DNA of 32,000 nucleotides from Pyrobaculum calidifontis JCM 11548 (GTDB lineage Archaea > Thermoproteota > Thermoprotei > Thermoproteales > Thermoproteaceae). The number at the start of each line of letters is the position of its first letter. Position 1 is the first letter of the stretch. A model generated the notes under the pieces. That model saw only the letters and a list, made by a program, of their open reading frames with translations, made no database searches and was not told the DNA's origin. Positions 4,911-30,265 of the stretch are shown in pieces. The position numbers and the translations under genes were made by a program. The stretch lies in assembly GCF_000015805.1 (NCBI RefSeq), contig NC_009073.1, forward strand, positions 1,230,001 through 1,262,000. Direction: 5' to 3'.

Positions 4911-5016
4911 GGGTGAGTGGCCTTGTGTGGCTTTATGGCTGTCGCTTATGCGGATGTGGGGGGTGTTTGGTGAAAGTTTTTGTTTAATGTTTTTATTTAT
5001 TCTCAATTTGTTTCTT

Positions 5017-5661
5017 ATGGGCGTTTCTGAGGTGCTTAGGGACAGGGCGTGGGGGGTCTGGGGGCGCATCTTGGAGCACCCCTTCGTGGTGGAGTTGTAC
5101 GAGGGGAGGCTCCCCGTGGACAAGTTTAGGTACTACCTGCTCCAGGACTACTTCTACCTCGTGAACTTCGCTAAGGCCCTCTCCCTCGCGGCGGCTAGGG
5201 CCCCCTCTGTGGGGCTTATGAAGCTGGCGCTTGGCTTAGCCTACGGCACTGTGACTGGGGAAATGGCCAACTACGAGGGGCTGCTGAGGGAGGTGGGGCT
5301 CTCGGTGGAGGCGGCGGCCTCGACGGAGCCCAACGAGGTGAATAGGGCTTACATGAGCTTCCTCTTGGCCGCCTGCGCCTTGGAGGGGTTCTACGAGTGT
5401 ATGGCGGCTGTCCTCCCCTGCTTCTGGACCTACTTAGACATCGCGGAACGGCACCGGGAGAGGCTTAGGGGGAACAAGGTGGACGTATACGTGAGGTGGG
5501 CCTCTACATACCTCTCCGAAGAGTACCGGCGCCTCGTGGAGAGCCTCAAGTCGGCCCTAGACAAGGGGGGCAGAGGCGCCGACGAGCTTTGGCCGTATTT
5601 CAAGGCGGCTGTGGAGTACGAGCTGGCGTTTTGGGACGCCGCGTACCGCGGGACTTCTTAA
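5017..5661 (+). CDS. tenA: TenA family thiaminase II / aminopyrimidine aminohydrolase
   Basis: The sequence reads ..ILEHPFVVELYEGRLPVDKFRYYLLQDYFYLVNFAKAL.. and ..ELAFWDAAY, which are classic TenA motifs. The start is trimmed to ATG 5017 (MGVSEVLRDRAW), downstream of an AT-rich promoter region. Confidence 0.85.
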   Translation: MGVSEVLRDRAWGVWGRILEHPFVVELYEGRLPVDKFRYYLLQDYFYLVNFAKALSLAAARAPSVGLMKLALGLAYGTVTGEMANYEGLLREVGLSVEAAASTEPNEVNRAYMSFLLAACALEGFYECMAAVLPCFWTYLDIAERHRERLRGNKVDVYVRWASTYLSEEYRRLVESLKSALDKGGRGADELWPYFKAAVEYELAFWDAAYRGTS

Positions 5662-5696: not shown

Positions 5697-6341
5697 GTGA
5701 TTGTCCTTACTGAGCTGTACAACGCACTGCCAGTGGAAGGGGGCTGTGTGAGGCTGGTGGGCGGGTGGCCCCACTTGACCGAGGGGAGCTGCGCCGGCAG
5801 GTACTTGGTGGTGGAGCGGGGGCGGGGGGTGAGGGCCAGCTCCGCGGCCGTCGGCGGCGGCCCCCTGGTCTTCTTTGTCGCAGCTGGCGGGCCTCCCATG
5901 CGCTTCGTCCTCTCCGAGGGTGCTGTGAGGGCGGTGGGGGATGGGCTTGAGCTTTTCTCTGGGTTTGTGAAACGTGGCTTGTGGAGGGAGCTGGAGCCGG
6001 CGTTTTTCGCGGCGGTGGCCAGGTACGGGGCGAGGTGCTCCTACTGCACCGCCTATATGGAGGTGGCGGGGAGGGCGTCTCCGGCTCGGAGGGCTGGTCT
6101 TATTGTGTCCGTGGGCACGGCCGGCGGAGTTAGGAGAGTGGTGGTGGTTTCTGCGCCGGGGCACTCGGAGGATTTTAAGAGGGCTGTGCTTGAGGCATAC
6201 CGCTCCGCCCGCGCCATCTACGCCTTTGGGCTGGGAGTCCCAGTGGACGTGGCCCTTGACGTGTACATGCCGCCCCGCGCCAGGCCCACGGCCGAGGTGG
6301 CCCCCCTATTGCCTATTCCAGCGGCGCGGCCTCTCGCCTAA
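5697..6341 (+). CDS. Hypothetical protein
   Basis: ORF 5496..6341. I propose GTG 5697 as the start because the region upstream overlaps tenA and a TATA-like CTTATAG sits about 24 bp upstream. I recognise no family. Confidence 0.4.
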   Translation: MIVLTELYNALPVEGGCVRLVGGWPHLTEGSCAGRYLVVERGRGVRASSAAVGGGPLVFFVAAGGPPMRFVLSEGAVRAVGDGLELFSGFVKRGLWRELEPAFFAAVARYGARCSYCTAYMEVAGRASPARRAGLIVSVGTAGGVRRVVVVSAPGHSEDFKRAVLEAYRSARAIYAFGLGVPVDVALDVYMPPRARPTAEVAPLLPIPAARPLA

Positions 6342-6507
6342 GCTCCAACATCCAGGGGCTTTCCTGCCTCCACTCGCCTGGCGTATAAACGAAGAGGCCT
6401 ACCCCGGGCTCTAGGGCTTCTAGCCTCTGTAGCGTGTTCAGCCGCTCCGCGTCCTTCACAACCAACGCCACGTCTGCGACGCGGAGGATAGCCAAATCTA
6501 TCTGCAC
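6313..6507 (-). CDS. Small ORF resembling the C-terminal half of a minimal nucleotidyltransferase (possible remnant)
   Basis: 64 aa with a GTG start. ..QIDLAILR.. and ..LFVYTPGEW.. resemble the DxD-proximal strand and the ..V.TPEE(F/W) motif of Pol-beta-type NTases. The G[SG]xARG N-terminal motif is absent. Confidence 0.3.
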   Translation of the reverse strand: MQIDLAILRVADVALVVKDAERLNTLQRLEALEPGVGLFVYTPGEWRQESPWMLELRREAAPLE

Positions 6508-6527: not shown

Positions 6528-6692
6528 TTAAAAACTTGGCTGTGCAAGTCGGCAGGGGCGCCTCTTTGCGGCACGTCTGAGTAGGGGGTCTGCCACCTTG
6601 TAGAGGTCTCCCTCTTTGACCAAAAATCCCTCGTCGAGTAGCGCCTTTAGGAGCCGGGCGAGCTCTGGGTCGTGGATTACGCCGTGTTTTAT
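6528..6692 (-). other. In-frame continuation of the ATPase gene beyond its TAG stop, encoding the expected winged-helix C-terminal domain
   Basis: Directly after TAG (6693-6695) the same frame reads IKHGVIHDPELARLLKALLDEGFLVKEGDLYKVADPLLRRAAKRRPCRLAQPSF and ends at TAA (6528-6530). This is the pattern of the DUF234-type wHTH tail normally fused to these ATPases. Confidence 0.6.
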
Positions 6693-7631
6693 CTACCTCT
6701 TGATTTCGGACCAGGTGGCCCCCTCGGCGGCTGCTCTCACGATGTCCACATACCGCCCGCTGCCCCGCAGGGCGACGAAGTTGCAGAACTCACTCCACGC
6801 AAGCTCGGCGCCGGCCTCGGCCGACGCCTCAAGCGCCTCTTCTACGCTCTTCCCTGCCTTCGCATATTCCACAGCCATTAGGCCGAAGTGGGCCAGCCAG
6901 CCTATTATGCCGTCGAGCTCGTCCACGGCTCTCTCTACCACCTCCGCGCTTACCCTAACCCCGGCCGCCTCGAAGCCTCGCCGTAGGTACTCCACGGCTA
7001 AACGCCTAGGCAGAGGCTTGACCTCCACCCGCGGCGCGTATCTGCCATAGAGGGGGCTCTCCGCGTCGCTGAGCCTTAGAAATTTGTAGAGCATGCCCTC
7101 CTTCGACCCCGTAACAACGAACTTGAGCCTGGGGAGATTGTCGTAGGAGTAGGCCAAGACGGGGAGGAGGCTGGCCCCCCTGAGCTTGGCCAACTCCTGC
7201 GCCTCGTCTAAGACCACCACCACGTCGCCGCCCTCGGACTCCCCCCACTGGTTCAAGGCCTCCAATACCCGGTGCAAGATAGGCCTCCCCCGCCCCCTGG
7301 CAAACCTCACCTCAACCCCAGCCACCGAGACCCCCTCCACCCGGGAGAGAAGCTCCACAAGCCTCTTAGACAGGCCAGACACCGCCCGGCCGAGCTCCCC
7401 AAGGACGTCGTCTAGAGTTATGTACCTCCTCCACTCAAACGCCCGCAAATCGAGGTAGACCCTCCTCATGCCAAAAGTGGCGGCCTTCACCAGCGACGTC
7501 TTCCCCACCCGCCTCACGCCCACCACCACGACCATAGGCGACCTCCCCACGGCCTCTCTCAAGGCCTTAACCTCCTCTTCTCTGTCAAACAGCTCTTCCG
7601 GCCTCTCCACCGGCGTAGGCCTAAAATACAT
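6693..7631 (-). CDS. Archaeal AAA ATPase (Arch_ATPase type), ending at an apparently premature TAG
   Basis: It starts MYFRPTPVERPEELFDREEEVKAL.., has Walker A GVRRVGKTS and Walker B VVVLDEAQ, and ends ..GATWSEIKR at TAG, where homologues continue into a wHTH domain. Confidence 0.85.
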   Translation of the reverse strand: MYFRPTPVERPEELFDREEEVKALREAVGRSPMVVVVGVRRVGKTSLVKAATFGMRRVYLDLRAFEWRRYITLDDVLGELGRAVSGLSKRLVELLSRVEGVSVAGVEVRFARGRGRPILHRVLEALNQWGESEGGDVVVVLDEAQELAKLRGASLLPVLAYSYDNLPRLKFVVTGSKEGMLYKFLRLSDAESPLYGRYAPRVEVKPLPRRLAVEYLRRGFEAAGVRVSAEVVERAVDELDGIIGWLAHFGLMAVEYAKAGKSVEEALEASAEAGAELAWSEFCNFVALRGSGRYVDIVRAAAEGATWSEIKR

Positions 7632-7633
7632 AC

Positions 7634-7660
7634 CTCCCTAGTAACTAGGGAGATATAAAG
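7634..7660 (-). promoter_or_regulatory. TATA box plus a perfect 9-1-9 palindrome between TATA and the start codon of the ATPase gene
   Basis: CTCCCTAGT-A-ACTAGGGAG (7634-7652) lies 2 nt from ATG 7631. It is followed at 7653-7660 by ATATAAAG, which reads CTTTATAT on the coding strand, about 25 bp from the ATG. Confidence 0.5.
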
Positions 7661-7783
7661 CTTCCATACACTACGCCTAAAGCTCATAGCATCTTGCGAA
7701 TAGAGACAAGCTAAAGCTCCTCCACCCCGGCTCCCGCAAAATAAGGGCAGAGGAGGAAAACATGGTAGGAGGAGTGGCTCGCG

Positions 7784-7993
7784 ATGGGCGCCGAGCTGGA
7801 GGAGCTACTGGGCGTCCCCGTGGACCTCGTCCCCTTAGACGAGGCGCCGTCCTGGGTGAGGCTTGAGGCCCTTGCCGGGGGCCTCCCCGTGTTGGTAAAA
7901 GACTGGGCGCTGTACGCCGAGCTTTTGAAGAGGGCCATGGGCGACGCCATGGACATGGACCTCAAGCTGGGCGGTGCAGAATATGCACGATAA
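7784..7993 (+). pseudogene. Truncated nucleotidyltransferase (MNT-type) remnant
   Basis: The 69-aa ORF reads ..AELEELLGVPVDLVPLDEAPSWVRLEALAGGLPVL.., which is the C-terminal part of a minimal NTase. Another frame just upstream (7762-) reads MVGGVARDG, resembling the GSxARG motif. The catalytic DxD segment between them is missing. Confidence 0.4.
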
Positions 7994-8023
7994 AGCATTT
8001 ACTCCCCCCACTGCGCGTGGGCC

Positions 8024-8398
8024 ATGGGCGAGAGAGTTGGCATAGTGCTCGCCTCAGACGACCCAGAGAGGCTCTACGTCGCGGCGACCTACGTGGCCAC
8101 GGAGCTTGCCATGGGCAAAGAGGTGGTGATATTCGCCGCTGGGCGGTCTGTGCTGGCGCTGGCGGGCAGAGGCGGCGCCGGGGGGCCCTACTACGAGAAG
8201 ATGAGGGAGCTGAAGGTGGACTGGCACAGTCTCTTAAAGGCGTCTAAGCCCCTGGGGCTGAAGATCGTGGCATGTGAAACTGCGCTGAGGATATACGAAG
8301 TGTCGCCAGACGAGCTGGACAAAGAGCTGGTGGACGCGGTGTCCTCCATGTACACCTTCCTAGAGGAGGTGGGCAACGGCAGAGTAGTGGCCTTCTAG
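8024..8398 (+). CDS. DsrE/DsrF-like sulfur-relay family protein
   Basis: 124 aa. It reads MGERVGIVLASDDPERLY..ATELAMGKEVVIFAAG.. and ..LKIVACETAL.., showing the size and motif pattern of DsrE-like proteins. Confidence 0.7.
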   Translation: MGERVGIVLASDDPERLYVAATYVATELAMGKEVVIFAAGRSVLALAGRGGAGGPYYEKMRELKVDWHSLLKASKPLGLKIVACETALRIYEVSPDELDKELVDAVSSMYTFLEEVGNGRVVAF

Positions 8399-8571
8399 GC
8401 GGCTAGGGTCCTCAGCCTCTCCCTCAAAGCCCCAGCCGCCTTGACGAACTCCTCCACCTCCTCGGCGCCGAGGTGCCCCTCGTAGAAATTCACATACAGT
8501 TGCTCCACTGCGGCGAACAGGAGGAGGATAGACCTATCGCCGAGCTCGTTTGCAATCCTCCGAAGACAAGC
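8395..8571 (-). other. In-frame continuation of the PaREP1 gene beyond its TAG stop
   Basis: After TAG (8572-8574) the same frame reads ACLRRIANELGDRSILLLFAAVEQLYVNFYEGHLGAEEVEEFVKAAGALRERLRTLAA and ends at TAG (8395-8397). It contains the ..L(H/Y)VNFYEG.. motif that I associate with the PaREP1 C-terminal half. Confidence 0.55.
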
Positions 8572-8850
8572 CTACACCAAGTGGTGAGAGTCGTGGCGCC
8601 AGCCCCTCCTCTCTGCCACAGCCTTCACTAACTGCACCACGAAGTTCCACACCTTCTCCCCGCCCTGCCTCAGCTCCCCAGACTTCACAAGCCTCAGACC
8701 CTCCTCCCAAAACCAGTCGGAAGACCTTAGATAAAACTCAACCCTCTCCCCTGGATCAATTTCCCTCTCTACAAGCCCGTGGATGTACTCCACAGGGTCT
8801 ACGCCCGGCGCCTTTTTCCTAATCGCCTCCACTATGAACTCCGGCAACAC
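8572..8850 (-). CDS. PaREP1-family protein, N-terminal part, ending at an apparently premature TAG
   Basis: 92 aa. ..[61 protein letters not shown] resembles the Pyrobaculum PaREP1 helical family. Confidence 0.65.
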
Positions 8851-8943
8851 GCCCTAGCTACGCCCACTTTATTTTGTTTTCGCCCGCAGACCCGCGGTAC
8901 GCCACCGGCTAATTCTTTAAAAATAGAATTCGAAACGGAGGCC

Positions 8944-10107
8944 ATGAAACGGGTGGTAATAGTGGGCGGCGGGATCGCGGGATTGGCGGTGGCAAAGACG
9001 TTGATCGAGGGCGGGCTCAAGGCGGAGATCACTGTGGTGACGCAGAACCCGCACTACTTCGCAGGGCCTTCGAGGCCGCTACTGTTGACCAACGAGCAGA
9101 GCTTGGACAGAATCGTGAGAGGCTACGAAGAGGTGGCCCAGAAGGTAAAGGTGGTCGTTGGCACAGTCTACGCGGTGAACCCCGCGGAGAGGAAGGTCAA
9201 GTACGTGGGCGGCTACACCTCGCACGGCGGCATAGGGGAGCTGAGCTACGACTACCTCGTGCTTGCCCCCGGCATAGTCCTCGACGGGAGCGGGATCACT
9301 GGCTACGCCGAGAACCGGGGCAACGTGGCCAACGTATACGACCCAGGGCGCGTCTCTGTGCTTAAGAACAGGGTGTGGAACGCCGAGAAGGGCACCGTCG
9401 TCGTCTACGCCCCCAAGGCCCCCTACCGCTGTGCTCCCGCGCCCACTGAGACCGCCCTGTTGATAGACGCAGTGCTGAGGCACAGGGGTGTGAGAGACAA
9501 GTTCAAAATAATTCACATAGACGCCAACGACAAGACCCAGCCCCCGGTCATCGCAGACGTGGTGTCGCAGATATACGCCAAGGCGGGGATAGAGGTGGTT
9601 ACAAACCAGGAGATAGTCGAGATTGGGAAAAACTACGTGGTGACCAAGAGCGGCGAGAAGTATCAGTACGACATATTGGCCCTACTGGAGCCCAACAGGG
9701 CTCCCAAGTTCGTGGAAGAGGCAGGCCTCGGCAAGACCTGGATCGAGGTTAGGAGCCCACAAGACCTCCGACACCCCAAGTTCGACGACGTGCTGGCCGC
9801 AGGCGACGCCGCTGGCCTCCCATTCCCCAAGAACCAGGAAATAGCCTTTGAAAGCGCCCTCTTCGCCGCCAACAAGATACTGGAGATGGAGGGTCTCACC
9901 TACAGGGCCTCTGTCCAATACGCGTTCCTGGGCTGGGCATACGTGGGCAACCTAGAGGGCAGGCTGGAGACCTACTCCCTAATGTTCGGCTTAGACTTCA
10001 CCACGCAGCCGCCCAAGCCACAGAAGGACCCACAGCCAAAGACAGACTACACCAAGGCAAAAGACCGCTGGGAGCAGACCTACCTACGGCAACTCTTCGG
10101 TTATTAA
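8944..10107 (+). CDS. FAD-dependent pyridine nucleotide-disulfide oxidoreductase, sulfide:quinone reductase / flavocytochrome c sulfide dehydrogenase-like
   Basis: The start is trimmed to ATG 8944 ([18 protein letters not shown], a Rossmann GxGxxG). It has ..YRCAPAPTE.., resembling the Y(K/R)CPPAPYE motif of FCSD/SQR enzymes, and ..VLAAGDAAG... Confidence 0.8.
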
Positions 10108-10127
10108 AATAAAGACCAACACTTTTC

Positions 10128-10895
10128 GTGTCCATCTGCGAAATTTTCAACGCGCTCTCCTCAGCGCCGGGAGACGTCGCCGTCTTAGTCAAGGCCAGGG
10201 TGGGAGACAAGTGGGTGGTGGACGTGGTGGTGGATGGGAGACCAGTCCTGGGGCTCGTGCCCCGCCACGTCGCCGAGCAGCTGAGGCTTGGGCAACCCGG
10301 CGATAGGTTCGACGGCGTTGTAGACGGCGTGGAGGTACACGCCGAGGTTGTGCTCATCCGCCCGACGGTGGTGGCCGTGGGGAGAGGCGAGGTGGCGAGG
10401 CGCGTGGCAGAGGTCGCCGCCGCCATGGGCTATGCCGTGGTTTCAATAGGCCACACTGCCCGCGGCGCGTTAGAGGCCACGTTTGAGGATCTGGAGAAGT
10501 TGGTGGGGGAGCACGCGGTGGTTGTGGTGGCCAACGAGGGGGGCGATCCCTCGGACGTGGACGTGGCGGAGCTTGCCATTAGGCGTAGGGCCAGATACGT
10601 AGCCGTGATGGCCAGCCAGAGGCGGGCTGCGCTGATATTGAGAGAGCTGGAGAGGCGCGGGGTGCCCAAGGAGGAGCTGGAGAGGCGGCTCTACACGCCC
10701 GCGGGCTTAGACATAGGGGCAAAGACCGCGGGAGAAATCGCGGTGAGCATATTGGCAGAGGCGGTGGCGGCCTTGAGGGGCGGCACGGGGAGGAGCCTAA
10801 GAGAGGTGAAAAACCCGCGTAGCGTTTTAAAAGAGGTGGAGGGGGAGTCCCTGGCCAGTTACAAATGCGACTGGAGGCCCCCTAGGGGCCTGTAA
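10128..10895 (+). CDS. XdhC/CoxI family maturation factor-like protein
   Basis: 255 aa with a GTG start. ..PTVVAVGRGEVARRVAEVAAAMGY.. is Rossmann-like, and ..YTPAGLDIGAKTAGEIAVSILAE.. is typical of the XdhC C-terminus. TATA-like TTATTAAAATAAAG lies at 10101-10114. Confidence 0.7.
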   Translation: MSICEIFNALSSAPGDVAVLVKARVGDKWVVDVVVDGRPVLGLVPRHVAEQLRLGQPGDRFDGVVDGVEVHAEVVLIRPTVVAVGRGEVARRVAEVAAAMGYAVVSIGHTARGALEATFEDLEKLVGEHAVVVVANEGGDPSDVDVAELAIRRRARYVAVMASQRRAALILRELERRGVPKEELERRLYTPAGLDIGAKTAGEIAVSILAEAVAALRGGTGRSLREVKNPRSVLKEVEGESLASYKCDWRPPRGL

Positions 10896-10945
10896 AAAAC
10901 TACTGCTTTTTCTCCCCCTCCTTTTTCTCCTCTTTCTTAACCTTG
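10896..10945 (+). terminator. Oligo-T rich terminator region after xdhC-like gene
   Basis: GCTTTTTCTCCCCCTCCTTTTTCTCCTCTTTCTT follows the TAA stop directly, in the gap between the convergent genes. Confidence 0.35.
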
Positions 10946-10981
10946 CTCGGTGGCGCGCACATGGGTGGGGGGTGGACAGTA

Positions 10982-12697
10982 CTATAAAAACGTTTCTAGG
11001 AGGGCTAGGGCCGTGAAGTAGGTGGCGTAGGCGAAGGCGAGGCCGAGGAGGAGCTGCACCACGAGGGAGAGGGCGGTGAGACGCAAGCCCACTTGTCTAA
11101 TCAACATGGCGGTGGTGGCTATGCAGGCGGAGTAGAAAGCCAAGAATACCAGCAGAGCGAGGGCTGAGGGCAACGAGAGAGCGGGCAGTAGATCCACGGC
11201 GCCCAGAGCCCCCATGAAGGCCCACACCAACTCCTTGAATATGTACCCGGCAACCAGCGATGTGGTTATCTGCCAAGGTATGCCCATGGGCTCAAACGCC
11301 GCGGCCAGGGCTTGCCCAAAGACGGCAAGCCAAGAGTGGGACATGTCCACTGCAAAGCCCCCTGGGCCAAACGCGGTGAGGGGCCAGAGGGCTAGGGGGA
11401 GTAAGACTATCAGAGGCCCCGCCTTTGTTAAAAAGTCCTTGAGATAGGCCCACACCTTTAGCGCGTAGATTCTGCCGCTTGGCCACATGAGGGGAGTCGG
11501 CGGGAGGCCCTCCACCCTTGGCTCCACGCGGAGGGCTCTGCGGTAGATGAGAGAGGCAAGCAAGATCGCAACGCCGGACGCCGCGTAGGGGAGAAAAACG
11601 GCGAGGGGTATTAGGTAGGGCCTATTTGCCAACACGGCTGCCGCCACTGCGACGAAGAGGGAAAGACGCGCGGCGCAGGGGACATATGGGACAAGGAGGG
11701 CGGTCAGAACCCGGTTGCCCCGCCCCCACATCACCTTGACCGTGGAGATTGCTGGAACATTACACGTAGAGCCAACTGCCAGGCAGAGAAGTCCCCTGCC
11801 GGGGATGCCCAGAGATGCGAAACGCATCTCCAACGTTCTAGCCAAGGCGCCTATGACGCCGCTCTCCTCATAAAAAGTCACGAGGGCTACAGCGGCCACT
11901 ACGTAGGGGATGAATGTGACAAAGGCAGAGACGCCGGTCCACGCCCCGTTGACAAGCAGAGAGGTCAGCCAGGCGGGGAGGCCCAGCGCGCGGATATAGT
12001 CGGGCACGAGGTCTAGGTACGGCTCTACGAGGGGCAGTAGGCCGGGCACCTCGGCGCCCCACGGCAGTATCCCCTCCACCGCAGCTAAAAGCCCCAGCAC
12101 CGTTACGGCGGAGAGCACAATTAACAGTGTGAAAGCCGCCCACGGCCTTGAGAAAATAGCCCCCGCCAGCCTCGCGGTGGGCTTAACCGACACCTCCTCC
12201 AGCTTAACCGGCGTAGGCCCCGCCGGCGTCCAAGAGGCCAAAAACCTAGCCAACTCCTCCACCCCCCTCCTCCGCGCCGCCGAGGTGTAGAAAACCGGGA
12301 TCCCCCACTTGGCCGAGAGCTCCTCCGGCTCCGCTCCAGGCGTCCCGAGGTCTGCCATGTTGAAGACAAACACCACGGGCTTGCGGCGGCTCAAAAACTC
12401 GGCCAGAGCCAGCGCCTCCCTCATTGCATGCGGCGCCCCAACTACAACAACCGCGTCGTATTTGTCCGAGAGAGCCTCCTCAATGGCCAACTTCTCATCC
12501 TCGTCCTTGGGGTTCCACGGGTCAAAGACGCCGGGCAGATCCACCACCTCAATGCCGTACCTTCTTACATACCCCACGTTCAAATCCAGAGTCTTCCCCG
12601 GGTAATTCGCCGTTTTCACATAGCGCCCAGTCAACGCATAGAACAGCGTCGACTTCCCAACGTTCGGGGGCCCCACCAAGGCAACGCGCTTAACCAC
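10982..12697 (-). CDS. feoB: Ferrous iron transport protein B
   Basis: 571 aa. The N-terminal G domain reads VALVGPPNVGKSTLFYALTG...ANYPGKT...VDLPG, and a polytopic membrane domain follows. The start is GTG 12697. Confidence 0.9.
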   Translation of the reverse strand: MVKRVALVGPPNVGKSTLFYALTGRYVKTANYPGKTLDLNVGYVRRYGIEVVDLPGVFDPWNPKDEDEKLAIEEALSDKYDAVVVVGAPHAMREALALAEFLSRRKPVVFVFNMADLGTPGAEPEELSAKWGIPVFYTSAARRRGVEELARFLASWTPAGPTPVKLEEVSVKPTARLAGAIFSRPWAAFTLLIVLSAVTVLGLLAAVEGILPWGAEVPGLLPLVEPYLDLVPDYIRALGLPAWLTSLLVNGAWTGVSAFVTFIPYVVAAVALVTFYEESGVIGALARTLEMRFASLGIPGRGLLCLAVGSTCNVPAISTVKVMWGRGNRVLTALLVPYVPCAARLSLFVAVAAAVLANRPYLIPLAVFLPYAASGVAILLASLIYRRALRVEPRVEGLPPTPLMWPSGRIYALKVWAYLKDFLTKAGPLIVLLPLALWPLTAFGPGGFAVDMSHSWLAVFGQALAAAFEPMGIPWQITTSLVAGYIFKELVWAFMGALGAVDLLPALSLPSALALLVFLAFYSACIATTAMLIRQVGLRLTALSLVVQLLLGLAFAYATYFTALALLETFL

Positions 12698-12815
12698 GCC
12701 CCCGTTAACAATGTGAACATTTAAACTTTATCAATAAAACCATTTCCAAAACCAATTCTTACTCAAAACAAGTTAAAACAACCCCGCGCCGTCAAGCAAC
12801 AGATCGGGGAGGGGG

Positions 12816-12827
12816 ATAATTTTTAAG
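12816..12827 (+). promoter_or_regulatory. TATA-like box for the nfeD-stomatin operon
   Basis: ATAATTTTTAAG lies about 20 bp upstream of ATG 12842, within the AT-rich divergent intergenic region 12698-12835. Confidence 0.4.
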
Positions 12828-12841
12828 ACGTCTATGTGTAC

Positions 12842-14008
12842 ATGCGGCTTTTCCTCGTCGCCTTGGCGCTGGCGGCCGCCCTCAAGGCGGCGGGCGTGGT
12901 GGTCGTCTACCTCGACGGGACTGTGGACGGGACGGCGGCTTCCCTCGTCTCGGCGGCGTTGGCTGAGGCAGAGGGGAGGGGGGTGCCCCTCCTCATCGTG
13001 TTAGACACATACGGCGGATTTCTCCAGCCCACCGACCAGATAGTTGACGCCATCCTGAGGGCCCGGGTGGAGGTGTACGCCTACGTGCCCCGGGGCGGCA
13101 AGGCCATGTCCGCGGGGGCCTTTATAGCCATAGCCGCGGATAGGCTCTACATGGACCCCACCGGCGAGATAGGCGCGGCCGAGCCCAGGCCCCCCGACCC
13201 CAAGGCGGTGAACTACGCCGAGGGCCGCATGAGGGCCCTGGCCCAGAGGAAGTGGAACGACAGCCGGGTAGACGTGGCCGCGTCCTTCGTCCGCGAGAAC
13301 AGAGTGCTGACTGGGAGAGAGGCCGTGGCCCTGGGCCTCGCGGAGCCGCCCCCGCCCGGGGGATGGGAAATCGTGGCAGAGTACAAGAGGGACCCGCTCA
13401 TGAGGCTGTTAAACGCCTTGTCTGACCCGACCCTAGTCGCGCTTCTCCTCCTCCTGGGGGCCGTCCTCATTGGGTACGAGCTACTCGCGGCGGGCTTCCA
13501 GGGCGTGGGGGTGGTTGGCGCCGTGTTGCTAGTCCTCGCCCTCTACCTAGTGGGGCAACTGGGCATCGACTGGCTCGTTGCGGCGTTGGCCATCGGCGGC
13601 GCGGCGCTCATAGCCGCAGAGGTCGTGGTTGGACACGGGGCATTTGCCGCATCTGGCCTAGCCATGTTTGCGCTAGCCGTCTACCTCGCGGCGGCGAGCC
13701 AGCCCTACTACCAGGCGGGGGAGCTGGCGTACCTCCTCGCCGGGCTGGGGGCCCTAGGGGCAGTGGCGGTGGCCTACCTGGGCTACAAGGTGAGGAAGGC
13801 CCTGAGGAGGAGGCCCTCCTACTACGTGGAGGAGCTGAGGGGGGCTAGGGGGGTTGCCAAAACCGCCATTGGGCCAGGCAGGCCGGGCGTCGTCTACGCC
13901 AAGGGCGAGGAGTGGACCGCCGTGTCAGACGAGGAGGTGCCGCCGGGGGCAGAGGTGGTGATAGTGGACGTGGAGGGGCTCACGGTAAAAGTTAAAAAGG
14001 CCGGCTAA
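12842..14008 (+). CDS. NfeD-type membrane-bound ClpP-class serine protease (stomatin operon partner protein)
   Basis: It has a signal/TM segment and then ..YLDGTVDGTAASLVS.., ..LIVLDTYGGFL.. and ..GGKAMSAGAFIA.. (ClpP-like fold). Several TM helices follow, then a C-terminal NfeD OB domain (..GVVYAKGEEWTAVSDEEVPPGAEVVIVDVEGLTVKVKK). GTG 12836 is an alternative start. Confidence 0.85.
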   Translation: MRLFLVALALAAALKAAGVVVVYLDGTVDGTAASLVSAALAEAEGRGVPLLIVLDTYGGFLQPTDQIVDAILRARVEVYAYVPRGGKAMSAGAFIAIAADRLYMDPTGEIGAAEPRPPDPKAVNYAEGRMRALAQRKWNDSRVDVAASFVRENRVLTGREAVALGLAEPPPPGGWEIVAEYKRDPLMRLLNALSDPTLVALLLLLGAVLIGYELLAAGFQGVGVVGAVLLVLALYLVGQLGIDWLVAALAIGGAALIAAEVVVGHGAFAASGLAMFALAVYLAAASQPYYQAGELAYLLAGLGALGAVAVAYLGYKVRKALRRRPSYYVEELRGARGVAKTAIGPGRPGVVYAKGEEWTAVSDEEVPPGAEVVIVDVEGLTVKVKKAG

Positions 14009-14017
14009 CCGATCACC

Positions 14018-14875
14018 ATGTTTCTACAGCTCGGAACCTTAATCGCCGCGGCGGTCATCGCCATCATTATAGTGGCCATCCTCGCCTCCTCCATCCGCAT
14101 AGTGCCCGAGTACATGAGGCTCGTCGTATTCCGCCTGGGCAGGCTAATAGGCCTCAGAGGGCCCGGCCTCGTCTTCCTAATCCCCGTGATAGACCAGGCT
14201 GTGCCCATCGACTTGAGGGAGCAGGTCATCGACGTGACTAAGCAGACGTGTATAACCAAGGACAACGCCCCCGTGGACATAGACCTCCTCATATACCTAA
14301 AGGTGGTAGACCCCGAGAAGGTGGTCACCCAGGTGCAGAACTTTAGGCAAGCCGCAGTGGGCATCGCCACCACGACGCTGAGGGCCGTGGTGGGGGACAT
14401 AGAGCTAGACGAGGTGTTGGCAAAGAGGGAGTACATAAACTCGGTCCTCAGGGCCAAGCTAGACGAGGTGACGGCGCGGTGGGGGGTGAAGGTGACGGCG
14501 GTGGAGATAAGAGAGATAATCCCGCCGGCGGACGTCCAGTCGGCCATGGTCAAGCAGATAGCCGCCGAGAGGGAGAGGAGGGCCATGATAGCCCAAGCCG
14601 ACGGAGAGAGACAGGCCGCCATACTCAAGGCGGAGGGGCAGAAGCAGGCGGCGATTCTACAGGCAGAGGGGGAGAGACAGGCCGCGATACTGCGGGCAGA
14701 GGGCCAGGCAAAGGCCCTGGAGCTGGTGAACGAGGCAGCGATGAAGCTGAGCCAAAACGCCATACTCCTCCAATACCTAGACGCCCTGCGCAACATAGCC
14801 AGCTCCCCCTCCACAAAGATAGTGGTGCCCATGGAGCTACTAACGGCGCTACAGAAGGTCTTAGGCAAGGAGTGA
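14018..14875 (+). CDS. SPFH/band 7 (stomatin/prohibitin-like) protein
   Basis: 285 aa. An N-terminal TM segment is followed by ..IRIVPEYMRLVVFRLGR.., ..PGLVFLIPVIDQ.. and an AEG/QAAIL-rich coiled coil, giving a canonical stomatin. It lies 9 nt after nfeD. Confidence 0.9.
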   Translation: MFLQLGTLIAAAVIAIIIVAILASSIRIVPEYMRLVVFRLGRLIGLRGPGLVFLIPVIDQAVPIDLREQVIDVTKQTCITKDNAPVDIDLLIYLKVVDPEKVVTQVQNFRQAAVGIATTTLRAVVGDIELDEVLAKREYINSVLRAKLDEVTARWGVKVTAVEIREIIPPADVQSAMVKQIAAERERRAMIAQADGERQAAILKAEGQKQAAILQAEGERQAAILRAEGQAKALELVNEAAMKLSQNAILLQYLDALRNIASSPSTKIVVPMELLTALQKVLGKE

Positions 14876-15513
14876 CCCCCCTAGCCCTCCTCATAGCCGC
14901 CGCGGCCACCTGGACCATCAACATAGGCGGAGTGCAGGCAACGGCGACGTACACAGCCGACGTGGACTTCCACCTCGACAAAACGGTAGTGTGGATCCCC
15001 GGAGAGGAGGTGACCGCCACCTACACAGCCGCCGGGGGGAGACTCAGGCTAAACCTCACAATCCCCCAGGGCGTCCCCCTCGTGGGCGGGAGGTCTGTTT
15101 CGTACGAGCTAGAACTGCCCCCAGGCGCCGGCAACGCCGCGAGGCTAGAGCTGGCCCCCGGCGTAGAGCTGAAGATATACGCCAACGTGAAAATACGCGC
15201 CGCGACCACCGCCGCCGGCGCAGAGCCCACACGCGTAGAGGTGGACGTCCCAGGCACAGCGCGCTTCAAGGCCACCGGCGCCGCTACATTCAACACCACG
15301 TTCTACGCCGTACCCACAGTGCGGGTAGAACTCATTGCGCCAGGCATCACAGTCACCCTCGTGGAAAAGGAGCTGGACAAGAGGGCCATGGAGCCCCCAG
15401 TGGCGAAGTCCGTGGCCTACCCCACGCCCCTCTTAGCCGTGGCGACCTCTGCCGCCGTCCTCGCCTCTCTGGCCCTCTGGCGGCTGAGGAAGCGAGCTGT
15501 ACTTCGTGGCTAG
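14872..15513 (+). CDS. Secreted beta-rich protein with N-terminal signal and C-terminal TM anchor (hypothetical)
   Basis: GTG 14872 overlaps the stomatin TGA (GTGA). The protein starts MTPLALLIAAAATW.., has T/A/V-rich beta-strand-like sequence, and ends ..PTPLLAVATSAAVLASLALWRLRKRAVLRG. The 5' part of track ORF 14479.. is an R/G-rich shadow of the stomatin gene. Confidence 0.6.
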   Translation: MTPLALLIAAAATWTINIGGVQATATYTADVDFHLDKTVVWIPGEEVTATYTAAGGRLRLNLTIPQGVPLVGGRSVSYELELPPGAGNAARLELAPGVELKIYANVKIRAATTAAGAEPTRVEVDVPGTARFKATGAATFNTTFYAVPTVRVELIAPGITVTLVEKELDKRAMEPPVAKSVAYPTPLLAVATSAAVLASLALWRLRKRAVLRG

Positions 15514-16035
15514 ATGACCGACTGCCTCGACCTATTCCTTCAGCGAAAACTTCCGTATTTTTTCGCCGATCTCATTCTCTGGGCCGTTTTCCTCGTGGAG
15601 TTGCGCTGGCTCTTAGCGCTTAGGGGCAAGGGGGCAGGCACATCGGCCTTCTACATGTGGCAGTACGCTTCCATTTTTGTGCTCTTTGTAGTGCTTAGCA
15701 TATTTTCGATAATGTCAAGTGAGTTCCTTGCGTATATACGCGGGGTGACAGACTGCCTTGAGGCCTATGAGCGTGGGTTTGGTTGGATTTTTGGGCTTGG
15801 CTTTGTGGCCCCCATTTGGGGCCTGGCCATCACATCCTACGCCGCCTGCGCGGTGTTGGGGGATAAGGCGTGTAAAATCCTCATGCCCGTCCTAGTCTTA
15901 AGGACAATTGTGACTGGTCTAGCTGTATACGCCAACATAGTGTTGCTAACTCAAAACACCTCTCTTTGGCTCCTCGTGATAATTTACTATGCCTTGTTTG
16001 CCACATACTACATCATACGAACTTGGCCTCGCTGA
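15514..16035 (+). CDS. Hypothetical polytopic membrane protein
   Basis: 173 aa. ATG directly abuts the preceding TAG. It has about 5 hydrophobic helices and noticeably lower GC than its neighbours. Confidence 0.55.
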   Translation: MTDCLDLFLQRKLPYFFADLILWAVFLVELRWLLALRGKGAGTSAFYMWQYASIFVLFVVLSIFSIMSSEFLAYIRGVTDCLEAYERGFGWIFGLGFVAPIWGLAITSYAACAVLGDKACKILMPVLVLRTIVTGLAVYANIVLLTQNTSLWLLVIIYYALFATYYIIRTWPR

Positions 16036-16287
16036 CGCGTCCGTCTTACGCCGGTCCGTCCCAGGGGTAGGATCTGAGAAGTCTCCCGACGGCTCTCTTG
16101 GCGTTGACGGCTCCTCCAACACGCCGAAGTCTCCGCTTTTATACGCTTGTTGCCACTGTTACGAGGGCGGAGCGCAAAAGGCTGTAGTGAGCTGTGAAGA
16201 CGTAGATACTTAGTGCTCCCAACGGAAGGCGAAGGCAGCGTGTACTTTAAGTACATCACATTTTTAACCCACGGCCCCGAGGGAGCC

Positions 16288-18039
16288 ATGTGGAAGCTGG
16301 CGGCGGCCGTGTTGGCCTTGGCGCTTCTCTTGGCCTTGGCCGGCGGCTCGCCGCCTCAGCCCACCGGCGCGGTAGAGGCGCTGCAGCTCCCAGTGGTTAA
16401 CCTCTCGGAGCTACGCATGGTGACCGGCTGGTCCGCCGTCCCCACCGCCCTCTTCTACTACGCGGCCGCCGACGCCGCGCCCGCCGTTGCGGCAAACGTG
16501 CAAGTGGCCGGCGTGGACGAGGAGGACTACGTGAAATTCGACGGGGAGAGGCTCTACGTTGCGTATAGGGGCTACGTCTACGTGGTGGGGCCAGACTTGT
16601 CCGTGGAGAAGAGGTTGCCCTGCCCCTCCTCGCTGGTCTGCTACGTCTTTGCCTGGGGCAACTCGGTGCTGGCCTACTCGCCCACTGAGGCGGGCACAGT
16701 GCTCTACCTATACGGCCCGTGGGGGAGGGCTGTCTACAACTACTCCGGGTACCCCGTGTCCACGAGGATGCGGGACGGCGTGGTGTACATTGTCGCAATG
16801 GGGGGCGTGGAGGCGGAGATAAACGGCGCCGCGGTCAAGGAGGCCCCCCTCCTCTCCCTCGGCGATCCCCCCGCCACGCTCATAGTGGCGGCTGTGGACA
16901 TGAGGACAGGCCGCTTCAACGCCGCGGCCTACGTCTCCTCCGCGGTCAGCCACGTCTACATGAGGGGAAACAGGCTGTACATAGCCGCGCCCCTGAGCCC
17001 CTACGACCTCGCCTACGAGGCGACCAAGGCCGTGTGGGAGAGACTGCCCCCGGAGATGAGGGCCGTGCTTGACATGGAAAACGTCTACACCTTCTACAAG
17101 ACCGTCAGAGGGTTGCTGGAGTGGAGAGGCGGGGAGTACCTGTCCTACCTCAACAAGGCCAACACCACCACGGCCACCAAGATCTACGTCTTTGAGACAG
17201 AGGGCGTGGAGGCAAGGCTCAAGGCCGTCTTTATAGTCCCCGGCCGCGTCTTAGACCAATTCGCCGTGGAAGAGCTTGGGGACAGGCTGGTGGTGGCCAC
17301 CACCGCCGCCCCCGTCAAATTCGAGCTCCTACGCCCACCCCCAGCCGACCCGTTCCCCTCGGTGATTAAGAGAGAGGGGTTGCCCACACAAATTCCGCCG
17401 CCCTCCCCACCGCCCGTGCTCTACGCCGCTGAGGGGGAGCCCACAAACGCCGTCTACCTCTACACGCCGGATGGGACATTGGTGGTCAAGGCGGAGGGGC
17501 TGGCCAGTGGCGAGAGGATATACGCCGCGCGCCTCGTGGGCTCCACTCTCTACCTAGTCACCTTTAGGCAGGCCGACCCGCTGTTTGCGGTGGACTTGTC
17601 CCGGGGAGAGCCACGGGTGCTTGGCTACCTCAAGACGCCGGGCTTCTCGGAGTACCTACACCCCGTGGCCCCCGGCAAGTTGTTGGGCGTCGGCGTCTAC
17701 GGCGACGGCGTCAAGATCGCGCTGTTCGACGTCTCCAACCCCGCGGCGCCCCGCGAGGTCTCCAACATCACCGTGCCCCACTCCTATACACCCATCATAT
17801 TCGACCACCACGCCTTCGCCTACAGCCAGGGAGTGGCCGTGGTGCCCATCCGCCTCCAGTGGCGGCAGTGCGCCGTTCTCGCCGTGGAAGTCGGCGACGG
17901 CCTAACGGCGAGGACCTTGGAGGGCGTGTGCGCAGACAGGGCCTTCTTCAAAGACGGGAGGATCCACCTCGTGGGCAGAGGCCGCGTGTGGCTATACGAC
18001 GCCACCTTCAACAAGGTTGGAGAAGTGGGGCTAAGTTAA
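16288..18039 (+). CDS. Secreted beta-propeller domain protein (COG4880-like)
   Basis: The start is trimmed to ATG 16288 (MWKLAAAVLALALLLALAGG, a signal peptide). ..DYVKFDGERLYVA.., ..RLVGSTLYLVTFRQADPLFAVDLS..P.VLGYLKTPGFSEYLHPV.. and ..VKIALFDVSNPAAPREV.. match the Beta_propel family as I recall it. TATA-like ACATTTTTAAC lies about 25 bp upstream. Confidence 0.75.
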   Translation: MWKLAAAVLALALLLALAGGSPPQPTGAVEALQLPVVNLSELRMVTGWSAVPTALFYYAAADAAPAVAANVQVAGVDEEDYVKFDGERLYVAYRGYVYVVGPDLSVEKRLPCPSSLVCYVFAWGNSVLAYSPTEAGTVLYLYGPWGRAVYNYSGYPVSTRMRDGVVYIVAMGGVEAEINGAAVKEAPLLSLGDPPATLIVAAVDMRTGRFNAAAYVSSAVSHVYMRGNRLYIAAPLSPYDLAYEATKAVWERLPPEMRAVLDMENVYTFYKTVRGLLEWRGGEYLSYLNKANTTTATKIYVFETEGVEARLKAVFIVPGRVLDQFAVEELGDRLVVATTAAPVKFELLRPPPADPFPSVIKREGLPTQIPPPSPPPVLYAAEGEPTNAVYLYTPDGTLVVKAEGLASGERIYAARLVGSTLYLVTFRQADPLFAVDLSRGEPRVLGYLKTPGFSEYLHPVAPGKLLGVGVYGDGVKIALFDVSNPAAPREVSNITVPHSYTPIIFDHHAFAYSQGVAVVPIRLQWRQCAVLAVEVGDGLTARTLEGVCADRAFFKDGRIHLVGRGRVWLYDATFNKVGEVGLS

Positions 18040-18062
18040 TAAATCCTGCTTTTTTTTCCAAT

Positions 18063-18815
18063 GTGCTCCTCATAGACGTCGCAGGTGGGTACAAGGGGAG
18101 GCTGGTGGTAGACGCCGCCTTTGAGGTAGGCCCCGGGGTCACGGCGCTGGTGGGCCCCAACGGCAGTGGGAAAACCACTCTGCTCCGCCTGGCGGCGGGT
18201 GTGCTGCCGGCGGCTAGGAGGAGGGTGGCCGTGGAGGGCGCCGAGGTCAGGCCGGGGGACTTGGCCTACTTGCCCACCTCCGGCGGCCTTGACCCACACA
18301 TGTTGGTGAGAGACGAGTTGGAGTTCTACTGGCAGGTGCTGGGCGGGGAGAGGAGGGACTGGGCCGTGGGGCTTCTCGGCTTGAAAGAGCTCATGGGGGA
18401 GAAGGTTGGGCGGCTAAGCCACGGCCAGCGCCGGAGGGTGGAGTTGGCCATTGTCTTCTCACTCAAGAGGAGGGTCTACCTCCTCGACGAGCCGCTGAAG
18501 GGCCTCGACGTCCAGTACAAAGATGCCGTGCTGTCGGCGCTCAGGGAGCTCGGGCCCTACGTAATCTTCACCACCCACGAGCCAGAGGCGGTAGAAAAAG
18601 TTGCACAATGGGTTGTCGTAATTAGAGGGGGTAAGCCGAGCTACGTGGGCGCGTTGGCGGGGCTCAGAAAGAGGGCGGTGATAAGGGCTAGAAGAGGCGG
18701 CGAGGTAGTCACTGTTGAGAGCGACGACGCCGATTCCAAGGCGGCGGAGCTCGCCGCGGCGGGGTACACTATTGAGGAGATTTCCAGTGCAGAGCTCAAG
18801 CGGCTGATGACATGA
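18063..18815 (+). CDS. ABC transporter ATP-binding protein
   Basis: The start is GTG 18063. It has Walker A GPNGSGKTTLL, signature LSHGQRRRV and Walker B VYLLDEP. The upstream part of track ORF 17859.. overlaps the propeller gene. Confidence 0.85.
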   Translation: MLLIDVAGGYKGRLVVDAAFEVGPGVTALVGPNGSGKTTLLRLAAGVLPAARRRVAVEGAEVRPGDLAYLPTSGGLDPHMLVRDELEFYWQVLGGERRDWAVGLLGLKELMGEKVGRLSHGQRRRVELAIVFSLKRRVYLLDEPLKGLDVQYKDAVLSALRELGPYVIFTTHEPEAVEKVAQWVVVIRGGKPSYVGALAGLRKRAVIRARRGGEVVTVESDDADSKAAELAAAGYTIEEISSAELKRLMT

Positions 18816-19093
18816 CCACCGCGCCGTTTGTAAAAAGGGCCTGGAAAGTGGGCCGCGCCGCCTACGGCACAACATTCGCCATAATGCTGATAATAGGCTT
18901 AGGCATAACTCTGACGTTCGCCGTAGTACTAACTACAGTCTCGCCAGAGGAGGTGGCAAAAGACGTGCCGCACTTGCCGCCGGAGGTTGCCTACACAAAC
19001 TTCAAGGCCCTCTTTCTAATGCTCACCGCAATCACCGTGGCCCTCTTTGCTGGCGGAGTGGCGGCGATGGTGATGGGCGGCTCTATTCAGTAG
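18812..19093 (+). CDS. ABC-2 type permease, N-terminal part (2 TM helices), ending at an apparently premature TAG
   Basis: ATG 18812 overlaps the ATPase stop (ATGA). There are two TM segments, then ..MVMGGSIQ and TAG at 19091-19093. Confidence 0.7.
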   Translation: MTTAPFVKRAWKVGRAAYGTTFAIMLIIGLGITLTFAVVLTTVSPEEVAKDVPHLPPEVAYTNFKALFLMLTAITVALFAGGVAAMVMGGSIQ

Positions 19094-19585
19094 GACAGTA
19101 GAAACGGCGTCTACGAGGTCTTGCTAGGCAACGGCGTGGCACCGGGGCAGTTGACAAAGGCCCTCTTCTACACTGCCATGTCTGCCGCAACCGCCTTCTA
19201 CATCTTGGCAGTGGCCTTGGCGGCCGTAATTACAGCACTAGCGGCGCCGGAGGCGTGGCCCATAATGCCCGCCGCGGCGCTGGCCGCCTTGGCCAGCGTG
19301 TTCTCAGCCGCTGCGTTGATACTCGTCGTTGGCCTTGCAAAACCTCAGCTGTTCAAAATTCGCACAGGCGTAGGGGCTACTCAGAACTTGGCGTATCTGC
19401 TTGCCCTACTGCCCTCAATGGCTCTTACATTTGCAACAACGCCGTTTTTAATATCCCTAGACGTGGAGACGGCCACCATCGTGATTTCCGCCACCTCGGC
19501 CGCGGCTATTTTGGCGAGTGTAGCCGCGGTGTTGGTGGCCCCCCGGTTTTTGAACAGGGAGGAGCTCATCGCCCCTGGGGACTAG
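19094..19585 (+). CDS. ABC-2 type permease, C-terminal part, in the same frame as 18812..19093
   Basis: No stop lies between TAG 19091-19093 and the track ORF 19121..19585. The sequence reads DSRNGVYEVLLGNGVAPGQLTKALFY.., which aligns with the conserved ..E.E.GT.E.LL..PVS...I.GK.. block of ABC-2 permeases, followed by 4 TM helices. If it is expressed independently, the start would be TTG 19121. Confidence 0.65.
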   Translation, partial: DSRNGVYEVLLGNGVAPGQLTKALFYTAMSAATAFYILAVALAAVITALAAPEAWPIMPAAALAALASVFSAAALILVVGLAKPQLFKIRTGVGATQNLAYLLALLPSMALTFATTPFLISLDVETATIVISATSAAAILASVAAVLVAPRFLNREELIAPGD

Positions 19586-20637
19586 AGGACTGGGTGGGGC
19601 ACGAGCACTAGCACGTATATGCCCATGGCGGCCAACACAGCGAGGCCGACTGGGGCCGCCAGCCTTATCCACTCTTTGAAGCCTATCTTGAGGACTCCCG
19701 CCAGGACTATGTTGGGGACGTTGCCCGGTATAGTCAATCCCCCGGAGAGCACTAGGGAGACTAGGAAGGCCCTAAGGGCGTCTACAGCCATCTCTGGGCC
19801 CACCAGCGCCGCCACCAGCGTTGCGTTGTCGGCCACGGCGGAGAGGAGGCCGAACACGTAGAGCACCTCCTTCCCCAGCTCCGCCACCGCCTCTGCTATG
19901 GGCTTGAAGAACTCCCCCAGGATAGTCAAGGCGAAGATGAATATGAACACCTTCGCCGCCCTTAGGAAGACCTCCCTCAGCTCGGGCTCGTAGGGCTCCA
20001 CCTCCACCTCCGCGGCGCGTAGCCTCTTCAGCGTGAAGTAGGCGTAGAGGGCGAAGAAGAGGACCACTATGAACACGGCGTCGAAGAGGACGTGGACGAG
20101 GTAGAAGAAGCCCTGCTTCAGCTTAGCCACCGCGATGGTGGAGAGGGGCTCCCCTATTGGCAAAAGGGCGGCGCCTGCCCCAATGGCGAAGGCCCCGTAG
20201 ACCGCGGCCCTGGCCTTGTAGCCGTGGGGCGCGTCTGCGAAGCCGAGTAGCTCCGCCAACACAGCCGCCGCCACTATGGCGGAGATGGCGCTGGAGGACA
20301 GGCCAAGGACGAAGATGAGGAGAGCCACGACCCCAGGCCTCGCCAAGACGTCCGCCGCCTTGGCCATCCTATGCCGAAGCGCATAGAAGACCAGGCCCGC
20401 CGCCAGCACCACTTGGACAATTCCAATGGGCAAGTAGCCCAGGCCGGGCTGGTAGACCGCCACGGGGTGGAGGAGTGCCTCCTCGATCAAGTGGAGCGAC
20501 CAAATGCCCTCCAGCGTCGCGCCGACCACCGCCATCGCCAAGAAGAAGAGCTCCAAGTTGTGCTCCACCTTCTTAGACACCACCGGCAGGGCGATCAACA
20601 AGACAAGGAAGACCACTTGGAGAAGGGGCAACTCCAT
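19582..20637 (-). CDS. Polytopic membrane transporter, DUF1646-like putative cation transporter
   Basis: 351 aa with about 10 TM helices. GEPLST and GNVPNI motifs are reminiscent of ion-transporter superfamily proteins. The family assignment is from memory only. Confidence 0.6.
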   Translation of the reverse strand: MELPLLQVVFLVLLIALPVVSKKVEHNLELFFLAMAVVGATLEGIWSLHLIEEALLHPVAVYQPGLGYLPIGIVQVVLAAGLVFYALRHRMAKAADVLARPGVVALLIFVLGLSSSAISAIVAAAVLAELLGFADAPHGYKARAAVYGAFAIGAGAALLPIGEPLSTIAVAKLKQGFFYLVHVLFDAVFIVVLFFALYAYFTLKRLRAAEVEVEPYEPELREVFLRAAKVFIFIFALTILGEFFKPIAEAVAELGKEVLYVFGLLSAVADNATLVAALVGPEMAVDALRAFLVSLVLSGGLTIPGNVPNIVLAGVLKIGFKEWIRLAAPVGLAVLAAMGIYVLVLVPHPVL

Positions 20638-29799: not shown

Positions 29800-30234
29800 A
29801 TGCCCATGAAAACCAAAGGCCTCGAACCAATAGTCGCCGCGGTGTTGCTAATAGTCGTCGCAGTAATAGGCGCAGTGCTGGTATACCTATGGTTCTCAGG
29901 CTATGTAACAAGAGCCACCTCTCAGGCAGAACAACTATCCGCAGCCGAACAACTAAAAATAGAAGCAGTATCAAAAACAGGCACTACAGTTAGTGTAAAT
30001 GTAAGAAATGTCGGAGAAGTGCCTGTTAAAATAGCTTCAGCATATGTGTTAAATGCCACAACATTAACAATGATATGTGGAGGATCTCTCACCAGCCCAC
30101 AGCAAATAGACCCCGGAACTATACAAACTATAAATGTGCCGGGTACTTGTAATTTAATCGCTGGCGCCCGCTATATTGTTAAAGTGGTTACGGCGCGTGG
30201 TACTGAGGCTGCGGCTACCTTTATTTCGCCGTAG
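29800..30234 (+). CDS. Archaeal type IV pilin (DUF361/Pilin_N type)
   Basis: The N-terminus is MPMKTKG|LEPIVAAVLLIVVAVIGAVLVYLW, the classic KGLEPI archaeal prepilin motif. A beta-rich domain follows (..VSVNVRNVGEVPVKIASAYVLN..). Confidence 0.85.
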   Translation: MPMKTKGLEPIVAAVLLIVVAVIGAVLVYLWFSGYVTRATSQAEQLSAAEQLKIEAVSKTGTTVSVNVRNVGEVPVKIASAYVLNATTLTMICGGSLTSPQQIDPGTIQTINVPGTCNLIAGARYIVKVVTARGTEAAATFISP

Positions 30235-30265
30235 GTGTTTTAAATTCCCCTCTTTTTTTCTCCCC

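Follow-up and report, generated by a model that had tools for sequence, protein, structure and literature searches.

Pyrobaculum calidifontis JCM 11548 is the source of the 32,000-nucleotide stretch of DNA considered here (the window; contig NC_009073.1, positions 1,230,001 to 1,262,000). Within 13 kb of the window, three genes each contain one in-frame TAG: a gene of the ATPase_2 family, a gene of the PaREP1 family, and a gene for a hydrophobic membrane protein. The best explanation is that each gene was inactivated by an ordinary lesion, recent on an evolutionary scale, that became fixed in the lineage leading to the sequenced strain, i.e., pseudogenization and not recoding (probability about 0.88). 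The phenomenon is of an already known kind. A TGG-to-TAG transition would have inactivated the PaREP1 gene and a TCG-to-TAG transversion the membrane-protein gene. In the ATPase gene, the loss of 6 bp in frame appears to have joined TA and G by accident. Translation most likely halts at each TAG, leaving products of 312 (ATPase), 92 (PaREP1), and 93 (membrane protein) residues, and full-length protein is presumably absent. The downstream frames probably look undegraded only through a shortage of time for further decay.

The original prediction, made from the DNA alone, had weighed three causes: recent nonsense mutations biased toward TAG by codon usage, in a lineage that might mutate at an elevated rate; sequencing or consensus artifacts; and UAG readthrough or suppression. 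The first was its preferred option and is largely borne out, with the ATPase deletion as a refinement.

Structure and ancestral state of the interrupted genes

The ATPase gene (6528-7631, minus strand) encodes an AAA/STAND-like ATPase_2 domain and a C-terminal winged helix of the MCM_C type, as assigned by Pfam and full-length homologues. From 7631, the reading frame runs for 312 codons to a TAG at 6695-6693, followed by 54 further in-frame codons and a TAA at 6530-6528. With the stop read as X, the product matches PF01637 (E = 1.7e-14, 54.6 bits; gathering threshold 33.2). The winged helix PF21100 is also matched (E = 3.6e-8, 33.6 bits; gathering threshold 27), and this domain straddles the TAG. 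Intact homologues of 358-375 amino acids can be aligned over their whole length.

The PaREP1-family gene (8395-8850, minus strand) is interrupted at codon 93. Its frame runs from 8850 for 92 codons to a TAG at 8574-8572 and then for 58 more codons to a TAG at 8397-8395. Intact orthologues support the family assignment, as does Pfam PF05942, which matches residues 40-139 across the TAG when the stop is read as X (E = 1.8e-13, 50.8 bits; cut-off 24.4).

The membrane-protein gene (18812-19585, plus strand) has 257 codons, is interrupted at codon 94, and is recognized by its orthologues. It consists of 93 codons from 18812, a TAG at 19091-19093, and 163 more codons before a TAG at 19583-19585. Directly upstream is an intact ABC transporter ATP-binding gene (18063-18815, plus strand), identified by NCBIfam ABC ATPase matches and by PF00005 in the sister orthologue. 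The TGA of this gene overlaps the ATG of the membrane-protein gene (ATGA). The ATP-binding gene is 92.8% identical to its sister, has zero stops, and has a ratio of nonsynonymous to synonymous substitution rates (dN/dS) of 0.15. The membrane protein, its presumed permease partner, has no match in Pfam (E<=0.01), NCBIfam (E<=0.1), or PDB sequence profiles. About six long helices are predicted, and AlphaFold2 run on six orthologues gave a low-confidence model (predicted local distance difference test score, pLDDT, 52). The label of ABC-2 permease used in the original prediction therefore agrees with the overlap with an ABC ATPase gene but lacks a family profile match; it is a reasonable guess from gene context.

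Comparison of the window with intact sister proteins by tblastn gave a single stop in a single frame for each of the three genes, at the positions first proposed. Across 29 sister proteins searched against the window, internal stops occurred in just these three genes and frameshifts in none. The claim that the three genes carry no frameshift and keep undegraded downstream frames is thereby upheld.

Two of the three genes belong to convergent pairs that share a terminal palindromic CTAG (8395-8398 and 19582-19585), so that TAG terminates both partners, one on each strand. PaREP1 is paired in this way with a DsrE-like gene, and the permease with a DUF1646 gene.

Wild relatives were found in metagenomes via members of the protein clusters and the contigs that encode them. 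They comprise ERZ1684501 NODE_10 (L011/L012), NODE_38 (L007), and the Joint Genome Institute (JGI) contigs L006, L009, and L010. NODE_10 is syntenic with window positions 1954-25730 at ~91-93% nucleotide identity. When FeoB was searched against genome contigs, the sole hit was Thermoproteus sp. UBA157 at 70% identity, and no species-level sister appeared.

The relatives supply the ancestral codons. In the ATPase gene, nucleotide alignment with L006, L007, and L011 together with protein alignment places AGG TAC CTC GAG/GAA ATA (R-Y-L-E-I) where the window has AGG TAG ATA, and the TAG (6693-6695, minus strand) is the product of a 6-bp in-frame deletion. In the PaREP1 gene, codon comparison with L009 identifies a G-to-A change from TGG to TAG (8572-8574, minus strand). 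The affected residue, W93, is near-invariant, with conservation of at least 90%; intact orthologues have 150-151 amino acids and 93-96% identity. In the membrane-protein gene, comparison with L010 identifies a C-to-A change from TCG to TAG (19091-19093, plus strand). The residue concerned, S94, is part of the motif GGSIQ-S-DSR and does not vary among 7 intact orthologues. There are six full-length orthologues of 254-260 amino acids (81-86% identity), plus one of 260 amino acids in the sister contig L012.

None of the three TAGs occurs in any orthologue examined, and in close relatives each position is held by sense codons instead. The comparison with sister strains that the original prediction had proposed thus finds all three lesions absent from every wild relative examined. 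The PaREP1 and membrane-protein genes are intact in all wild relatives found, including the syntenic 138-kb sister contig. The residues affected are a Y-L-E tripeptide, a Trp, and a Ser, and the mutations are of two types, substitution and 6-bp deletion. The description of all three as recent nonsense mutations holds for PaREP1 and the membrane protein, where substitutions are seen, but not for the ATPase, where a deletion makes the TAG.

The sequence itself is reproducible. Independent datasets of later date, several JGI assemblies among them, contain contigs with 100% identity to the window at all three sites. Many "metagenome" contigs with 100% identity to the window also encode the 312-amino-acid ATPase, 91/92-amino-acid PaREP1, and 154-amino-acid permease fragments. 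Some of these contigs, at least, are from synthetic mock communities sequenced on DNBSEQ (ERR97657xx runs, e.g., ERR9765742; PMC9652401), and P. calidifontis JCM 11548 is listed as a member of such a synthetic community (PMC4712552). P0171 and several JGI/Logan contigs are likewise the same strain at 100% identity. Identical contigs are taken as DNA of the same strain, and they confirm the sequence without representing independent wild populations. An error of sequencing or consensus in the reference assembly, the second option of the original prediction, is excluded for practical purposes by these later assemblies, which give identical DNA across all three TAGs and include the DNBSEQ resequencing of mock communities.

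One apparent permease variant, P0097/L023 (ENA ERZ27274652 k141_219041), was rejected as a chimera of four non-adjacent window pieces (10987-11108, 15650-15885, 19177-19627, and 23100-23379). This chimera is the origin of a bogus 199-amino-acid permease "variant" in protein databases.

Expected frequency of TAG among new stop codons

A null expectation for the stop type was derived from the 8,959 codons of the window genes, under several weightings of transitions and of GC-to-AT changes. The G+C content at third codon positions (GC3) of these genes is 0.76. Of the single-base changes that create a stop, a share of 0.53-0.57 is expected to give TAG, and the codon-usage bias toward TAG suggested in the original prediction is confirmed at ~55% of point nonsense changes. 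All three stops are TAG because more than half of the possible stop-creating changes yield TAG at this GC3. The chance that three of three are TAG is P~0.17 (0.55^3); for the two true substitutions it is P~0.3, and with a TAG found in sister copies of the ATPase it is ~0.09.

TAG is also a normal terminator. Among 26 intact genes in the window, 12 end in TAG, 9 in TAA, and 5 in TGA, a count from which a spurious antisense open reading frame (ORF) was removed and to which the T2SSF gene was added. Genes ending in TAG have no close backup stops, the median distance to the next in-frame stop being 48 codons. The five normal TAG terminators cited in the original prediction are all correct, and its argument against a genome-wide reassignment of UAG stands, given the 12 TAG-terminated genes and the absence of the internal TAGs from orthologues.

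Other members of the PaREP1 family are broken by other stops. In L034 (1371-1373) and L035 (1762-1764), from other hot-spring metagenomes, a TGA is found at the same Trp codon, a recurrent hit on TGG. L039 has a frameshift besides TGA, TAA, and TAA, L044 has frameshifts besides TAG and TAA, and L043 has a frameshift. Pooled over this small metagenomic census, the in-frame stops are TAG 5, TAA 3, and TGA 2, consistent with the mutational null.

Island decay, lesion density, and selective constraint

A 2.5-kb accessory island of toxin-antitoxin-like HEPN/MNT modules contains both the ATPase and the PaREP1 gene and has four lesions in the window lineage. Two of these are deletions additional to the lesions of the original prediction. 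In relatives, the ATPase gene is flanked by two HEPN-MNT modules, and the HEPN and HepT partners of both nucleotidyltransferase (MNT) genes are present in the sister contigs L011 and L007. In the window, one MNT remnant (6316-6507, minus strand) matches only residues 57-113 of a sister 113-amino-acid NTP_transf_2 protein by tblastn. The junction sequence joins this remnant to the opening codons of the lost HEPN gene. Relative to L011 13283-13789, ~0.5 kb is deleted at 6475/6489, and the HEPN gene and N-terminal half of the MNT gene are gone. The second MNT remnant (7769-7993, plus strand) matches only residues 56-129 of a sister 129-amino-acid protein by tblastn. Between 7667 and 7769, ~1 kb is deleted relative to L011 11079-12103, with loss of the HepT gene and the N-terminal half of the second MNT gene. 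This site is filled by ~100 bp of unrelated sequence (7667-7769). Both MNT genes are cut at nearly the same residue (~56/57), and their inverted C-terminal remnants bracket the ATPase gene.

The ATPase gene is also broken in sister lineages. A TAY-to-TAG change at Tyr294 is common to NODE_38 (L007:1210-1212) and NODE_10 (L011:12100-13300). The NODE_10 copy has additional deletions of 8 bp and 1 bp, both frameshifting, in the N-terminal ATPase domain, from which it follows that a TAG-bearing copy proceeds to decay. The ATPase gene of L006 (137-1245) has a 1-bp deletion, possibly a sequencing error. A 564-codon ORF with no known domain (3429-5123, minus strand) is intact in the window and has a frameshift near codon 335 in L011:15153-16831 and L007:3354-5032.

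The original prediction called the broken genes unusually dense. Three in 13 kb, compared with 35 annotated pseudogenes in 2.44 Mb in P. oguniense, gives a Poisson P~0.001 against this rough baseline. However, the baseline is an undercount because such fragments are filed as ordinary proteins in NCBI and UniRef, and the broken genes are not independent draws because two of the three share one decaying accessory island. The impression of density thus has some numerical support, weakened on both of these counts. The local density of lesions probably follows from the erosion of the HEPN/MNT island, and relaxed selection on this accessory island explains the clustering better than a mutator state. 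The membrane-protein lesion would be a separate, independent hit in a transporter operon.

Measured pairwise against the sister lineage, the three genes have dN/dS values of 0.086 (ATPase), 0.18 (PaREP1), and 0.33 (membrane protein); 20 intact neighboring genes span 0.07-0.40. On the window branch, PaREP1 has 5 synonymous and 4 nonsynonymous changes, with S70F and H119Y at near-invariant sites; PaREP1 alone of the three hints at relaxed constraint. The lesions are recent relative to the ~3% divergence of the lineage, which is enough to explain the undegraded downstream frames.

Alternatives to pseudogenization and annotation of the loci

Several observations weigh against pseudogenization as the full account. 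Within the P. calidifontis/ERZ1684501 clade, each of the four independent events that created a stop produced TAG (~0.09 under the null). Counting the P. calidifontis clade together with a pooled relative gives five independent events, a sample too small to rule out a modest excess of TAG. The ATPase gene has 25 synonymous and 5 nonsynonymous changes on the window branch, with no relaxation, which would mean either a very recent lesion or some function left in the truncated or interrupted gene. The membrane-protein gene shows no clear relaxation, with 14 synonymous and 10 nonsynonymous changes on the window branch versus 16 : 22 and 23 : 13 in the sisters.

The run of four TAGs, like the intact frames downstream, would suit low-level suppression or readthrough of UAG, in which near-cognate decoding or an unrecognized suppressor tRNA would yield some full-length protein and make amber mutations less costly in this lineage. 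This is very unlikely. Genuine terminators are most often TAG, with the next in-frame stop far off, the all-TAG pattern has P~0.09-0.3 under codon usage, and TGA and TAA are both present in PaREP1 pseudogenes of relatives. The replaced amino acids differ, and no one inserted residue could restore all three genes. The flanks AGG TAG ATA (ATPase), GTG TAG GCT (PaREP1), and CAG TAG GAC (membrane protein) have no context in common, a point already made in the original prediction and confirmed by comparing them. No unusually stable RNA structure lies downstream of the TAGs (folding z = +1.9, -0.2, and 0.0, respectively), and the 32-kb window contains no tRNA by ARAGORN and no Rfam match. The usual archaeal complement is about 46 tRNA genes. 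For P. calidifontis, 46 tRNA genes are reported (PMC8450103). A review treats archaeal stop-codon readthrough solely as selenocysteine and pyrrolysine insertion (PMC8211752), and a paper on the divergent ribosome active site of P. calidifontis is silent on termination and readthrough. Readthrough, the third option of the original prediction, is left unsupported, with TAG a normal terminator, the replaced residues unlike, and no cis signal.

The interrupted genes might instead remain useful, with N-terminal products that work alone or halves that are made by re-initiation and assemble. Examples would be the ATPase domain without its winged helix and the membrane protein as pieces of 93 and ~150 amino acids. 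The branch counts and low dN/dS of the ATPase gene agree with this, as does the late position of both known ATPase TAGs (codons 294 and 313), which spares the whole P-loop domain. Possible TTG and GTG starts are found 10-15 codons past the permease TAG, and gene callers predict an ORF of 149-154 amino acids there. However, NODE_10 has frameshifting deletions within the N-terminal ATPase domain too, the permease TAG takes out an invariant Ser in a conserved loop motif, and PaREP1 loses half of its single domain. Useful fragments are therefore improbable. For the ATPase gene, which seems to have been held by strong purifying selection until very lately (dN/dS~0.09) yet has different lesions in each close lineage sampled, there might also be recurrent selection to silence a costly defense-like STAND ATPase, or late ambers might be tolerated via readthrough or functional truncation; either is a long shot. 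Ordinary pseudogenization is preferred to all of these.

Among known systems, pyrrolysine (UAG) recoding in methanogenic archaea likewise involves an in-frame UAG in an otherwise intact frame and requires no cis element. In contrast, the UAGs here replace a Trp, a Ser, and a deleted tripeptide in unrelated genes that do not encode methyltransferases. The orthologues have ordinary sense codons, UAG is the commonest terminator, and no pyl genes or tRNA-CUA were seen within the window, the only part searched. The Saccharolobus solfataricus gene fucA1, expressed by -1 frameshifting (PMC8211752), is similar in that its two parts together match a full-length homologue. It differs in having a described slippery site and stem-loop, and some fucA1 homologues are full-length. 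Each interruption here is unique to one lineage, and a shared signal is absent. The closest likeness is to ordinary prokaryotic pseudogenes made by nonsense mutations or small indels. The lesions are lineage-specific, lie at conserved residues, and are absent from close relatives. They are concentrated in accessory or multi-copy families (PaREP1, ATPase_2, and HEPN/MNT), have deletions close by, and affect a gene that sister strains have lost through other lesions. The sole oddity is that every one of the three stops is a TAG, which is likely given codon usage. For archaea, gene decay was treated by van Passel et al. 2007, as cited in PMC8211752.

Elsewhere in the window, a fourth interrupted gene was considered and rejected. 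The T2SSF-family membrane protein gene (30176-31036) ends in TGA and is followed by an in-frame ORF (31052-31669). That ORF does not code for protein; a gene for a VirB11/FlaI-like secretion ATPase, in a different frame, begins at 31033 and runs past the window end. A 382-codon ORF (30733-31881, minus strand) is spurious and antisense. In the ORF at 29800-30234, GC3 is atypically low (0.35), and the only domain match is a weak one to DUF973.

The fragments of the three genes are held as separate ordinary proteins of 312, 92, and 149 amino acids in NCBI and UniRef (window 6693-7631, 8572-8850, and 19121-19585). Since fragments are filed as proteins, the annotated pseudogene count for this genome is probably too low. 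The three loci should be annotated as pseudogenes. UAG suppression in a crenarchaeon would, if true, be a notable finding on the genetic code; nothing here supports such suppression. In a GC-rich genome, an "all-amber" pattern is what the null predicts and is no evidence of recoding.

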